DNA of 64,000 bases from Escherichia phage I29, in sequence record ON286975; one strand, given 5' to 3'. The translations under genes were made by a program, and so were the position numbers. The notes under the pieces were generated by a model. The model was not told where the DNA came from. It did not search any database and saw nothing but the letters and a program-made list of their open reading frames with translations. Of this stretch, positions 51,956 to 56,123 are shown in pieces (the first letter of the stretch is position 1; the number at the start of each line of letters is the position of its first letter).

Positions 51956-52234
51956 ATGAGCTGCGAAAAATCTTTTTTCATCATCATTTACGGTAAGGAT
52001 AACTGCCCACATTGTGTCAGAGCAAAAGAATTTGCAATCAGCAAAGGTCTGCCTTTTGTATATAAGACACTTGGCGAGGGCTACACAAAAGAAGAGCTTA
52101 TTGAGAAGTGTAGTCCAATCGTCCCCCGAACGTTGCCGCAGATCTTCTTAGAAAGCGATCTTGACAGTATCCATATAGGCGGTGCCGACGATTTCATCTC
52201 TTTTGTTAAGAATGGTTTTGGAGAGAAAAAGTGA
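51956..52234 (+). CDS. glutaredoxin/NrdH-like redoxin
   Basis: 92 aa; CPHC active site (IIYGKDNCPHCVRAKEF). Confidence 0.7.
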   Translation: MSCEKSFFIIIYGKDNCPHCVRAKEFAISKGLPFVYKTLGEGYTKEELIEKCSPIVPRTLPQIFLESDLDSIHIGGADDFISFVKNGFGEKK

Positions 52235-54369
52235 AAGTTGTAAAACGGGACGGTAGAGAAGAGTTCTATAACGGAATTAAGGTGATCAAGGCGGCAGAGT
52301 CCGCCTTACTTGAGTCTGGACATACTGAAGAAGAAGCTTACCGGATCGCTTGTGCGGTTAATGAAGTTGTTGCTAACAATCTGCCAACCGACCAGTGCAC
52401 GATCTCTGTAAAAAATATCCATATCCTTGTTGAAGATGCTCTTATGGATATGGGTTTAAAATGTGCAGCCAGAGAATACATCCAGTATAGACAGACAAGA
52501 GATAATAACAGAGAGGCAGGTGGAAAACTGCTTGCAGATATTAGTGGCTTCTTGGATCGAACTTGTGATGAATTTACAAAAGAAAACGCAAATAAGCCCA
52601 CTAATCATGTACACACTCATCGTGACCTGCTTGCAGGCATCCTTAGCAAACACCTTGCATCAACACAGATCCTGCCAGACCGTGTCTCCGAAGAGCACAA
52701 TAAAGGCTTCATCCATGTGCATGATCTTGACTACTTGATCAGTCCGTTAACAAACTGTTGTTTGGTAAATTATCCAGATATGCTGGAAAACGGATTCAAC
52801 ATTGGTAACGCCCATGTCAGTAAGCCGAAGTCAATAGGGGTTGCAACAACAATCCTTAGCCAAATCTCCAGTGCGGTAGCTAGTGCTCAATATGGTGGTC
52901 AGACTATGAGCCATATTGATCATTATCTGGCACAGTATGCTGAAGCGACCTATGAGAAGAACCTTAAATTTTGCCAGGAACATTGGTTGCCAGATGCTGA
53001 GACCGTTGCAATGCAAATGACAGATAAAGACGTGTTTGACAGCATGCAGACTTTGCTCTATCAAATCAATACGTTAACCTCTGTCAACGGGCAAACTCCA
53101 TTCATCACATTAAGTTTAGGACTGGATACCTCGGTCTTTGGTAGAATGATTACCAAAAATTACTTGAAAGTCCACAAAATGGGTCTTGGTGAAGAACGGA
53201 TCACACCTGTGTTCCCTAAAGTGCTGTTCTTCCTAGAAGAGGGTGTCAACATGAGCCCTAGAGATCCTAACTATGATTTGAAACGATTAGCTCTGGAATG
53301 CTGTGCAGAACGTATCTATCCTGACTTCGTATCTGTACCACTAAATAGAAAAGTGACAGGCTCGACAGATGGCAAAGTAACGAGCATGGGTTGCCGGAGT
53401 TTTCTTAGCAAATACAATGACTTGGAAACAGGCGAGGAGAAATACCTTGGCAGATTTAACTTAGGCGTTGTTAGCCTTAACCTGCCAATGATTGCGGCAA
53501 AAGCTAAGACGGAAGGTGTTGATTTCTTTGCAGTTCTTGACGAATACTTAGATCTTGCATACGAGGCTCACCTTGTAAGGGTTAACCGTCTAAAAGGAAC
53601 AAAGGCAGGGCAGAACCCCATCATGTGGTGTGAAGGCGCTCTTGCTCGCCTGGATCCTGAAGAAAGTATTGATAAACTCTTCTATGACGGGTACGCTTCC
53701 ATCAGCATTGGGTACATTGGTGTGTATGAAACCTGTCAGATTTTGGGCAGAGAAGGTGACAAGGCTTTAGCTCTTGGAATCCTTCAGCACATGAGAGATG
53801 CTTGTGAGCGATACAAGAAGGAAAGTAGACTAGCATTTAGCTTGTACGGCACTCCTTCTGAGAGTCTATGCTATAAAGCTGCAACCTGTCTGGATCGTGA
53901 ATATCCAGAAGTGTTAAAGCACGAGCATGAATATCTCACCAACAGTTTCCATCAGCCAGTATGGATCAATAGCTCTCCTTTTGATAAGTGGGAGTATGAG
54001 GAAGGTTTTGCTATGATCTCCTCCGGTGGCAACATCGGATACGTAGAGACACCTAACCTGAAAAACAACCTTGATGCTTTAGAGGCTCTTGTTGACTTCG
54101 GGTATAAACACATTATGTATTTTGGTATTAACCAACCTGTGGATAAATGTCTCAAGTGTGGTTTCTCTGGTGAGTTCAGTGCAACAGCTAAAGGGTTCTG
54201 CTGCCCTGCGTGCGGATGCCACGATGAACAATATATCTCAGTGATCCGAAGAGTGTCTGGCTATCTCTCCAGCCCGAACAGTAGGCCGTATAACACAGGT
54301 AAACAAGCAGAGGTTATCGAACGTGTTAAACATGTTGGGAATGTAGACTGTTGTCCGTTGAGTAAATAA
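52231..54369 (+). CDS. nrdD: anaerobic ribonucleoside-triphosphate reductase
   Basis: 712 aa; N-terminal ATP-cone, C-terminal Zn-ribbon CLKCGFSG...CCPACGCHD and glycyl-radical-type RVSGY. Confidence 0.85.
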   Translation: MKVVKRDGREEFYNGIKVIKAAESALLESGHTEEEAYRIACAVNEVVANNLPTDQCTISVKNIHILVEDALMDMGLKCAAREYIQYRQTRDNNREAGGKLLADISGFLDRTCDEFTKENANKPTNHVHTHRDLLAGILSKHLASTQILPDRVSEEHNKGFIHVHDLDYLISPLTNCCLVNYPDMLENGFNIGNAHVSKPKSIGVATTILSQISSAVASAQYGGQTMSHIDHYLAQYAEATYEKNLKFCQEHWLPDAETVAMQMTDKDVFDSMQTLLYQINTLTSVNGQTPFITLSLGLDTSVFGRMITKNYLKVHKMGLGEERITPVFPKVLFFLEEGVNMSPRDPNYDLKRLALECCAERIYPDFVSVPLNRKVTGSTDGKVTSMGCRSFLSKYNDLETGEEKYLGRFNLGVVSLNLPMIAAKAKTEGVDFFAVLDEYLDLAYEAHLVRVNRLKGTKAGQNPIMWCEGALARLDPEESIDKLFYDGYASISIGYIGVYETCQILGREGDKALALGILQHMRDACERYKKESRLAFSLYGTPSESLCYKAATCLDREYPEVLKHEHEYLTNSFHQPVWINSSPFDKWEYEEGFAMISSGGNIGYVETPNLKNNLDALEALVDFGYKHIMYFGINQPVDKCLKCGFSGEFSATAKGFCCPACGCHDEQYISVIRRVSGYLSSPNSRPYNTGKQAEVIERVKHVGNVDCCPLSK

Positions 54370-54380
54370 GGAAAGAGGTG

Positions 54381-54419
54381 GAGAGCAAGGATGCTCTCAT
54401 TTTTTTTTTTTTTGTTTTT
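54381..54419 (+). terminator. strong intrinsic terminator after nrdD
   Basis: GAGAGCA-AGGA-TGCTCTC 7-bp stem followed by a run of about 20 T. Confidence 0.75.
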
Positions 54420-54420
54420 A

Positions 54421-54449
54421 TTGACTTCTATTCCTCTTTTCTATAGTAT
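54421..54449 (+). promoter_or_regulatory. sigma70-like promoter (TTGACT-17-TAGTAT)
   Basis: TTGACT 54421-54426, TAGTAT 54444-54449, upstream of 54488 gene. Confidence 0.4.
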
Positions 54450-54487
54450 GCAATATAAAGTGAATAGCGGAAGGGTCTGGTCTGGTA

Positions 54488-55420
54488 ATGAGAAGACTAA
54501 CAACCGAAGAGTTTATAGAAAAAGCTCAGACTATACATGGTGACAAATATGATTACTTCAAAGTGGAGTATAAAAACAACAAGACACCTGTGTGTATAAT
54601 TTGTCCTGAGCACGGTGAGTTCTGGCAAACCCCTGTGGCACATGCTTTCAAGAATCATGGTTGTCCAAGGTGTGGTGGGTCAGCGAAAAAGAACACTGAA
54701 GAGTTCATAAAAGAGGCTATGGCTGTTCATGGGGACAAGTACGATTACTCATTAGTCAAATATGCGAACATGAGAACGCCTGTAAAAATTGTTTGCCCTG
54801 AACACGGTGTGTTTGAACAATACCCTGAAAACCACTTATACCAAAGAAACGGCTGCCCAGAGTGCTATGACTTAAGACGTGGGCAAAGTCAAGCGTTAAC
54901 CCATAAGGAGCATGCTGCAATTATCCACAAAGCCAACCCAGACATAGAAATATTAGAGAAAATTGCCAATGATAACACAAAAGTGCAATGTAGGTGCAAA
55001 ATTTGTGGGTATAAGTGGTCTGCTAAACCTAATAACCTAAAAAGTGGTCGTGGCTGCTGTAAATGCGCACAAAATGGATTCTTATCTCATGAGTACGGTA
55101 AACTCTACATTATGGTTGATGACTTAGAAGTGCCAACACTTATGAAAATCGGTGTATGCGTTAAAATGCACAGGAGGAAAAATGAGGTGCTTAACAGTGC
55201 TCGTAAATCTGGCGCAGGTGTCCACACTCTTCACGTAGTAAAAACATGGAGCGGATCAACTCAAAACATGGTAGATTTAGAAAAATCTGTGCATAAGGCC
55301 TTGAGCAAGTATAAAATAAACTTTCCTGTAAAATTTGACGGTAGCACTGAGTTTTTCTACTACAGGCCTGAAGTGTTTGACACGGTAGAAGAGGTATACA
55401 AGAAGATTTGTGGTAAATGA
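54488..55420 (+). CDS. homing-endonuclease-like protein (repeated Zn-finger modules plus T5orf172/GIY-YIG-like C-terminal domain)
   Basis: 310 aa; three repeats of HGDKYDY..V.Y.N..TPV.I.CPEHG.F.Q.P..H....GCP.C; C-terminal GKLYIMVDD...KIGVCVK...VHTLHVV...GSTEFF. Inserted between nrdD and nrdG with own terminator/promoter. Confidence 0.45.
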   Translation: MRRLTTEEFIEKAQTIHGDKYDYFKVEYKNNKTPVCIICPEHGEFWQTPVAHAFKNHGCPRCGGSAKKNTEEFIKEAMAVHGDKYDYSLVKYANMRTPVKIVCPEHGVFEQYPENHLYQRNGCPECYDLRRGQSQALTHKEHAAIIHKANPDIEILEKIANDNTKVQCRCKICGYKWSAKPNNLKSGRGCCKCAQNGFLSHEYGKLYIMVDDLEVPTLMKIGVCVKMHRRKNEVLNSARKSGAGVHTLHVVKTWSGSTQNMVDLEKSVHKALSKYKINFPVKFDGSTEFFYYRPEVFDTVEEVYKKICGK

Positions 55421-55472
55421 TTGTAGAAAGATATGCATATCTTAAACATGCTATTAACTAAGGAGGTGCAGT

Positions 55473-55589
55473 ATGTCATCAGGTATTTATAAAATTTGCA
55501 AGTGCGGCTGTAGTTGCAATCTTCGTTGGTGCAAGGCACTAGACGATTTTATTTGGCATTGCCCTAAATGTGATGCGGAGTATCTATGA
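55473..55589 (+). CDS. 38-aa Cys-rich micro-protein (zinc-ribbon-like), translationally coupled to nrdG
   Basis: Own translation MSSGIYKICKCGCSCNLRWCKALDDFIWHCPKCDAEYL; AAGGAGGT RBS 5 nt upstream; stop TGA overlaps nrdG ATG (ATGA). Below the ORF-track size cutoff. Confidence 0.45.
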   Translation: MSSGIYKICKCGCSCNLRWCKALDDFIWHCPKCDAEYL

Positions 55590-56059
55590 ACATTGTCGGA
55601 TACACAGAAATATCTTACACCGAAGGGCCAGGTATTAGAACTGCCTTGTGGGTATCTGGGTGCCCACACGCTTGCCCTGGTTGCTTTAATCAGGCATTTT
55701 GGTCAAAAGATAAGGGGAGGGAGTTCACTGAAGAAGACTTGCAAAAAATCTTGTCAGATTTAGATAACCCGTCTGTGTGCGGTATCTCTCTGCTGGGTGG
55801 AGAACCCTTAGCATACTATAATGAGCCAGATATTATTAGCCTGATGGAGAAAATTAAGGAAAAATTTGGTGACAAGAAAACTATTCTTGTATATACTGGG
55901 TTCACATTTGACCATATCTCTAGTGATGTTCTTAAACTGGCTGATATCATCATTGACGGTAAGTATGTAAAAGATTTACCAACCAAGAAACCGTTCCGAG
56001 GCAGTGATAACCAAAGAATGTTTAAAAAAGTATCAGGCGGTTGGGTTCAGGTAGACTAG
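55586..56059 (+). CDS. nrdG: anaerobic ribonucleotide reductase activating protein (radical SAM)
   Basis: 157 aa; radical-SAM cysteine motif CPHACPGC near N-terminus. Confidence 0.85.
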   Translation: MNIVGYTEISYTEGPGIRTALWVSGCPHACPGCFNQAFWSKDKGREFTEEDLQKILSDLDNPSVCGISLLGGEPLAYYNEPDIISLMEKIKEKFGDKKTILVYTGFTFDHISSDVLKLADIIIDGKYVKDLPTKKPFRGSDNQRMFKKVSGGWVQVD

Positions 56060-56062
56060 TTG

Positions 56063-56092
56063 TTGACAAAGCTTTGTTTAGATAGGTATAAT
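56063..56092 (+). promoter_or_regulatory. sigma70-like promoter (TTGACA-18-TATAAT)
   Basis: gTTGACAaagctttgtttagataggTATAATtatcg. Confidence 0.6.
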
Positions 56093-56123
56093 TATCGTAA
56101 AATGAAAGTAGAGGAGGTGCCAA

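Follow-up and report, generated by a model that had tools for sequence, protein, structure and literature searches.

A putative free-standing T5orf172-type homing endonuclease gene between nrdD and nrdG of Escherichia phage I29

What is the 310-aa protein encoded between the anaerobic ribonucleotide reductase genes nrdD and nrdG of Escherichia phage I29, and is its gene a selfish insertion? The window analysed here is a stretch of 64,000 nt (record ON286975) from this rV5-like phage of the genus Vequintavirus. Region 52231–56100 of the window was 98.3% identical to the corresponding region of Shigella phage CM1, and matches to it were identified in 121 phage records of the phage database. A first-pass annotation had read nrdD, the 310-aa ORF (hereafter ORF310), a 38-aa ORF, and nrdG as lying in this order on one strand, and this layout was confirmed, all four being on the plus strand (Table 1). 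The same annotation took ORF310 for a free-standing, homing-endonuclease-like insertion, which is borne out by empty sites in relatives, a nuclease domain, and a cassette that is less diverged than its flanks.

Table 1 Features of the nrdD–nrdG region of phage I29 (positions in the window)
Feature	Position	Strand	Remarks
nrdD	52231–54369	+	ATP-cone, NRDD, and glycine-radical domains
Resident Vequintavirus-type part of nrdD (upstream flank)	52231–54260	+	No insertions in the window
Foreign 3' end of nrdD (final 36 codons)	54261–54369	+	Approximately 22% base difference from the empty-site allele
nrdD intrinsic terminator	54381–54413	+	Stem GAGAGCA/TGCTCTC, loop AGGA, then A and 14 T
Sigma-70-like promoter candidate	54421–54449	+	TTGACT-17-TAGTAT; 9/12 matches, alone not significant
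ORF310, 310-aa putative homing endonuclease	54488–55420	+	Pfam, PHROG, fold, and conserved residues
Zinc module 1 of ORF310	residues 1–64		DUF723 type
Zinc module 2 of ORF310	residues 68–128		DUF723 type
Zinc module 3 of ORF310	residues 137–195		CapR/DUF4379 type
T5orf172/GIY-YIG-fold domain of ORF310	residues 200–310; 55085–55417	+	C-terminal
Cassette trailer and right junction	55421–55460	+	Identity with the empty site resumes at 55461
38-aa Cys-rich ORF (phrog_20137)	55473–55589	+	Outside the insert; stop overlaps the nrdG start (ATGA)
nrdG, radical-SAM activase (downstream flank)	55586–56059	+	Domain and PHROG matches

In the Pfam search, ORF310 matched DUF723 in two stretches (E 2.4e-13), CapR (E 2.2e-10), DUF4379 (E 7.5e-10) and, at residues 207–307, T5orf172 (PF10544; E 6.5e-8, 33.4 bits against a cut-off of 20). 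The match to the MUG113 profile was slightly under its cut-off, PHROG 681 ('endonuclease') matched with an E-value of 3.8e-65, and the search of NCBIfam found nothing. The AlphaFold model of the protein had a mean pLDDT of 86.5, and the nuclease domain showed the alpha/beta fold of GIY-YIG enzymes. The figures listed for the GIY-YIG comparison were 7.3 and 7.1 for Slx1, 7.0 for HIGLE, 5.0 for the catalytic domain of I-TevI, and 4.6–3.5 for AtGRXS16, Eco29kI, T4 EndoII, and UvrC; a sequence-only search starting from ORF310 reached no solved GIY-YIG structure. Three zinc-finger modules and a T5orf172/GIY-YIG-like domain had been proposed in the first-pass annotation, which named profile searches as a check and the lack of any nuclease domain as counting against its reading. 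T5orf172 was detected, and Pfam, PHROG 681, and the fold agree with the proposal.

Y207, K220, G222, R230, H269, and E288 of ORF310 were invariant in an alignment of 19 homologs. The catalytic set of the superfamily, namely the Tyr of strand 1 (Y207), the Arg of helix 1 (R230), and the Glu (E288), was kept, and Lys takes the place of the second Tyr in the GIY-YIG motif, as is usual for T5orf172. For Odn, the only T5orf172 protein whose DNA cutting was demonstrated, catalysis is ascribed to this Arg and this Glu, and the E180A mutant is inactive (PMC8263062). Judged from position in the fold and from that study rather than from residue-level superposition, R230 and E288 would be equivalent to R27 and E75 of I-TevI and to E180 of Odn. 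Comparison with a 75%-identical ortholog (locus L015, see below) gave dN/dS values of 0.14 for the whole gene and 0.09 for the nuclease domain, indicating purifying selection, and no second copy (paralog) of ORF310 was identified elsewhere in the 64-kb window. Sequence and model together place ORF310 in the T5orf172 branch of the GIY-YIG superfamily, with a predicted nuclease activity.

The distribution of the gene was investigated using a probe of 126 nt across the junction from nrdD to the 38-aa ORF of phage Murica, in which the site is empty. This probe was contiguous in 92 records, and segment 54370–55472 of the window (1.1 kb) was found in only 18 phage records; the ORF310-type gene is absent from three quarters of close relatives. 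The first-pass annotation had suggested a comparison with insert-free relatives and regarded conservation of the ORF in all of them, with no empty site, as evidence against an insertion. In view of the 92 empty sites, a lineage-specific, fixed feature was rejected. Simple deletion was also rejected as the source of the empty sites, because these carry the standard nrdD tail as well. In 8 more records (JEP1, Mangalyan, phiWec189, ECML-10, WalterGehring, nom, O157 typing phage 14, and SophiaRose), the probe was broken at its position 79–81 by other alleles, which have the T5orf172 domain in common and contain three or four zinc modules in differing orders. Their point of entry follows 'gtggca[c/t]a', approximately 29 nt beyond the nrdD stop, and on the right they reach as far as the ribosome-binding site of the 38-aa ORF. 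The WalterGehring allele is annotated as 'putative homing endonuclease' and that of SophiaRose as 'putative GIY-YIG nuclease family protein'.

Several observations concern the carrier records themselves. Most of the annotated records among the 18 carriers label the ORF310-type gene 'hypothetical protein' in GenBank, and nine Campylobacter-labelled carrier records have no annotation. Nineteen 'UNVERIFIED Campylobacter phage' records of the GenBank series MG0656xx are rV5-like Vequintavirus genomes near-identical to coliphages, and their host label is doubtful. The copy in Shigella phage CM1 (L009 4013–4822) has zero substitutions relative to the window, yet it is frameshifted; its product of 269 aa is devoid of E288, and either decay of the copy or an error in sequencing seems to be the cause.

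The borders of the insert were located by alignment with Murica. The two nrdD genes were 98–100% identical up to 54260, the last 110 nt differed by approximately 22%, and the sequences were then unalignable until 55461, a position within the ribosome-binding site of the 38-aa ORF. On this comparison, the mobile unit extends over about 54261–55460, with the 38-aa ORF outside. The span originally assigned to the insertion, 54370–55589, was correct as to its presence and has to be shifted at both borders, as the import starts at approximately 54261 inside nrdD and ends at approximately 55460. The recoded nrdD end leaves the protein unchanged up to ERVKH save for one K-to-T substitution, after which the carrier tail VGNVDCCPLSK replaces YGSCGC of the empty-site allele, each followed by the stop codon.

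A strong terminator and a promoter had also been attributed to the insert. The terminator proved real: a GC-rich stem of 7 bp (54381–54398) is followed by 14 T, the folding energy was −17 kcal/mol (z −4.1), and compensatory changes in the stem were identified at the distant loci L015 and L018. It was rejected as the terminator ending the endonuclease gene, for it is positioned upstream of ORF310 and ends the nrdD transcript; folding indicated no convincing terminator 3' of ORF310 (z 0.04). As for the promoter, the scan returned 11 sites against 10 expected, so that by this measure alone the site at 54421–54449 is no better than chance, and the proposal gains from the −35 hexamer and 17-nt spacing being kept in L015 and L018, two lineages that are approximately 30% diverged. 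Transcription of the endonuclease gene, the 38-aa ORF, and nrdG probably starts from this site. Because a terminator follows nrdD and no convincing one follows ORF310, the insertion has probably altered transcription, with nrdG read from the cassette promoter.

The variant nrdD end, the terminator, and the promoter were present in precisely the 18 records carrying ORF310, and in the sampled data the terminator and promoter were always linked to an ORF310-type gene. Searches for the foreign nrdD tail in a gene-less state gave the tail in the 18 carriers only in the phage database, no match in IMG/VR, and one further carrier, with no gene-less locus, in the JGI metagenomes. Between the carrier and empty alleles, the recoded nrdD end and replaced spacer are strictly linked to the gene, and a patchy tract was observed in JEP1, in which a cassette-type nrdD patch (54261–54300) lies inside a standard nrdD end.

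The last 180 nt of nrdD are a mosaic hot spot. The gene is interrupted in relatives at two sites, corresponding to window positions 53090/53091 and 53391–53401, both of which are uninterrupted here. The first site holds either a 257-nt ORF-less insert (L002 2361–2617) or an insert of approximately 800 nt with a 177-aa HNH_3 ORF (L003/L005/L014 2361–3157), and the second an insert of approximately 770 nt with a 169-aa HNH_3 ORF (L005 3459–4228); L010, L011, and L012 are also listed for nrdD interruptions. GenBank annotators join the nrdD exons across these inserts, and no group I intron model of Rfam matched them at the gathering score. A third haplotype of the Cys-rich zinc-ribbon of NrdD (54195–54260; L003, L004) has GFVCPECGNHEEGT in place of GFCCPACGCHDEQY and occurs in phiWec189 and ECML-10.

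The first-pass annotation had further supposed that nrdG expression depends on coupling to the 38-aa ORF, and this was not upheld. By tblastn, the 38-aa ORF was present in 121 of 121 Vequintavirus records, full length in 120, and no match was obtained beyond this genus. Its ATGA overlap with nrdG is the same in empty-site phages, nrdG has its own GGAG five bases 5' of the ATG, and in naam-type relatives the two do not overlap but are approximately 380 nt apart. Therefore, the coupling is ancestral and non-obligatory, and no product of the insertion. The 38-aa protein matched nothing in Pfam or NCBIfam, contains seven Cys and one His (MSSGIYKICKCGCSCNLRWCKALDDFIWHCPKCDAEYL), and is encoded by an ORF in which synonymous changes exceed non-synonymous ones; this small protein possibly binds metal and acts as a partner to the anaerobic reductase system.

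Two alleles of NrdG with 52% protein identity were observed in Vequintavirus (window 55594–55941; L008 4856–5595; L013, L014, L038). They differ mostly in the first approximately 120 residues, the last approximately 37 being near-identical, and both occur among cassette carriers. The naam-type NrdG is accompanied by a 78-aa ORF (phrog_3249) between the 38-aa ORF and nrdG. Immediately 3' of nrdG, a perfect sigma-70 consensus (TTGACA-18-TATAAT, 56063–56092) precedes a 37-aa ORF (phrog_7670) and a 116-aa ORF (phrog_7650).

A likely source of the cassette was identified in metagenomic phage contigs of two kinds (141 kb and 135 kb), which are 67–75% identical to the window in the nrdD–nrdG region. 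Both kinds, L015/L016 and L018, carry ORF310 orthologs between nrdD and nrdG, with 75% and 59% aa identity, respectively. In these contigs, the native end of NrdD reads VKHVGNVDCCPLS[RK] before the stop codon, and nrdD is followed by a hairpin with a T-run and then by a TTGACT-17-TAnnAT element. As the same features are native there, the nrdD tail, terminator, and promoter of the window arrived with the gene from an L015/L018-like lineage. Between the window and L015, pS was 0.59 for the endonuclease gene, 0.82 for nrdD, and 0.77 for nrdG; the lower value of the gene fits a transfer that took place after the host genomes had split. The T5orf172 domain also showed 69–71% nt identity with genes of mEp021-like temperate phages of approximately 53 kb (L037 1876–3363; IMG/VR loci L019–L032), where it is part of a 495-aa zinc-ribbon protein; the gene for this protein lies among replication genes and precedes those for an HNH endonuclease and the helicase. 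This likeness indicates exchange across unrelated phage groups.

The spread of the cassette inside the genus was examined with the window and eight other carriers. Mean pairwise divergence among them was 0.80% in the cassette and 3.76% in the flanks, and the difference between cassette and flank was significant for each carrier (Fisher p 6e-5 to 4e-22). The haplotypes of nrdD and of the downstream region vary among carriers, several being shared with empty-site or other-allele phages, and the nearest flank neighbours of carriers are often non-carriers. For example, the downstream flank of the window is 0.11–0.16% from that of the empty-site phage HeinrichReichert and 1–5.7% from those of other carriers. 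The tract from 54160 to 55421 is identical across all carriers, and the ends of the shared tract vary with the carrier, between 53550 and 54159 on the left and between 55422 and 55615 on the right. What emerged is the pattern of a homing gene: presence/absence polymorphism at a defined site, a distribution discordant with the flanks, and a younger element. In all carriers, the foreign nrdD sequence starts at 54261, which suggests one entry into the genus followed by spread inside it; a single entry with recombinational spread explains this common left edge no less well than repeated invasions from outside do.

Here, we propose that ORF310 is probably a free-standing homing gene whose endonuclease belongs to the T5orf172 branch of the GIY-YIG superfamily, cleavage and homing being predicted from the evidence above. 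In the proposed model, three tandem treble-clef zinc modules would bind a long DNA target, and the C-terminal nuclease would cut co-infecting, gene-less rV5-like genomes at or near the 3' end of nrdD or in the nrdD–nrdG spacer. Repair of the break from the carrier genome would then transfer the gene, and flanking DNA with it, into the cut genome. The carrier allele itself would be immune, its last approximately 110 nt of nrdD being recoded and the native spacer replaced. The cassette stems from a more distant phage lineage, whose nrdD tail, terminator, and promoter it brought along, and the 38-aa ORF and nrdG of I29 would probably be transcribed from the cassette promoter.

Other explanations have to be weighed against this model. 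ORF310 might be a competition or exclusion nuclease directed at co-infecting relatives or satellites, its spread being a by-product. ICP1 uses the T5orf172 nuclease Odn in this manner (PMC8263062). The strong purifying selection (dN/dS 0.14) and the long persistence of the gene in three diverged lineages, each time at the same position, are likewise compatible with a gene that benefits the phage. On the other hand, no PADLOC defence-system model matched at E ≤ 0.01, and presence/absence, an allele series at one site, and a linked recoded flank form the classical signature of homing. Exclusion is, moreover, compatible with homing, as marker exclusion and homing share one mechanism; as the primary role of ORF310, we consider it unlikely. 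The idea of a domesticated DNA-binding protein that no longer cuts, such as a repressor of the CapR kind or an nrd-operon regulator, draws on the precedent of CapR of PLE satellites, which is such a relative (PMC8096241, PMC10448857), and on the cassette promoter that probably drives nrdG. However, CapR has no nuclease domain, whereas the T5orf172 domain of ORF310 is complete, keeps R230 and E288, and evolves with a dN/dS of 0.09; in addition, three quarters of close relatives manage without the gene. This is the least probable of the explanations considered.

Low divergence of the cassette and its patchy distribution could also stem from ordinary recombination plus selection. In a further alternative, ORF310 plays no part in its own transfer, and general homologous recombination shuttles it among rV5-like phages as a passive accessory gene. 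The nrdD–nrdG region is indeed a mosaic, with two nrdD insertion sites, two NrdG alleles, and an optional 78-aa ORF, and the left edge of the foreign sequence is common to all carriers. Passive movement nevertheless leaves three things unexplained: the upkeep of an intact nuclease with a long DNA-binding array, the occupation of exactly this site by six or more different alleles from one family, and the position of this family beside conserved essential genes in many phages. We regard it as very unlikely. Returning to the homing model, a bolder extension, which we offer tentatively and think less likely than its opposite, is that the nrdD–nrdG spacer is an arena of at least six competing T5orf172 alleles with one nuclease domain and reshuffled zinc-finger arrays. 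The window allele would have gained an edge through its foreign tail, terminator, and promoter, which would remove the native target and make nrdG expression dependent on the cassette. If this is true, the allele series is a natural data set on how zinc-finger modules specify DNA targets.

The locus offers a well-resolved natural case for the recently described T5orf172 homing genes, with an empty site, alleles, junctions, a co-travelling flank, and a likely donor. It also presents a candidate selfish element that recodes the C-terminus of an enzyme, NrdD, and probably affects the transcription of its activase gene too. In practice, carrier records with a 'hypothetical protein' could be re-annotated, and the nrdD–nrdG region is best left out of Vequintavirus phylogenies.

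The kind of gene to which ORF310 belongs is already described, and no new kind of system is revealed; the literature search returned no paper on this particular nrdD–nrdG element. Free-standing homing endonucleases of T4-like phages, such as SegF, SegG, and MobE (GIY-YIG and HNH), are located between conserved genes including nrd genes, cleave the gene-less allele, and cause co-conversion of flanking markers, and I-TevI is their structural reference. ORF310 resembles these enzymes in its free-standing location between conserved genes and in the GIY-YIG catalytic fold, and a like mechanism would be expected. It differs from them in the reversed domain order with the nuclease at the C-terminus, in zinc fingers instead of NUMOD or helix-turn-helix domains, and in the Lys that replaces the second motif Tyr. 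With Odn (ICP1 Gp88), ORF310 shares a T5orf172 domain with conserved Arg and Glu, but Odn has a RepA_N DNA-binding domain and is an anti-satellite weapon, not a homing element.

Phage T5orf172 homing endonuclease genes with CapR/DUF723 zinc-finger repeats were described by Barth, Dunham and Seed (2023, PMC10448857), who observed ribonucleotide reductase genes nearby in 33% of the neighbourhoods, domain shuffling, and a location at genetic-exchange boundaries. Like ORF310, the genes of the ICP1 gp165/gp174 type encode N-terminal CapR/DUF723/DUF4379 fingers and a C-terminal T5orf172 domain, are free-standing beside ribonucleotide reductase genes, and are shuffled between alleles. Unlike the surveyed genes, ORF310 resides in an rV5-like Vequintavirus, has approximately 25–37% aa identity to those of other phage groups, and belongs to a locus whose empty site, junctions, and co-transferred foreign flank can be read directly. 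Closer still are bas51_0186 of WalterGehring in the BASEL collection and the SophiaRose gene, which come from the same genus, occupy the same place in the interval from nrdD to the 38-aa ORF, and have a homologous T5orf172 domain with approximately 75% nt identity. The zinc-finger array of bas51_0186 is, however, unlike that of ORF310, and this gene is inserted past the native hairpin behind a standard nrdD tail; it lacks the terminator, the promoter, and the foreign 3' end of nrdD that distinguish the cassette of the window.
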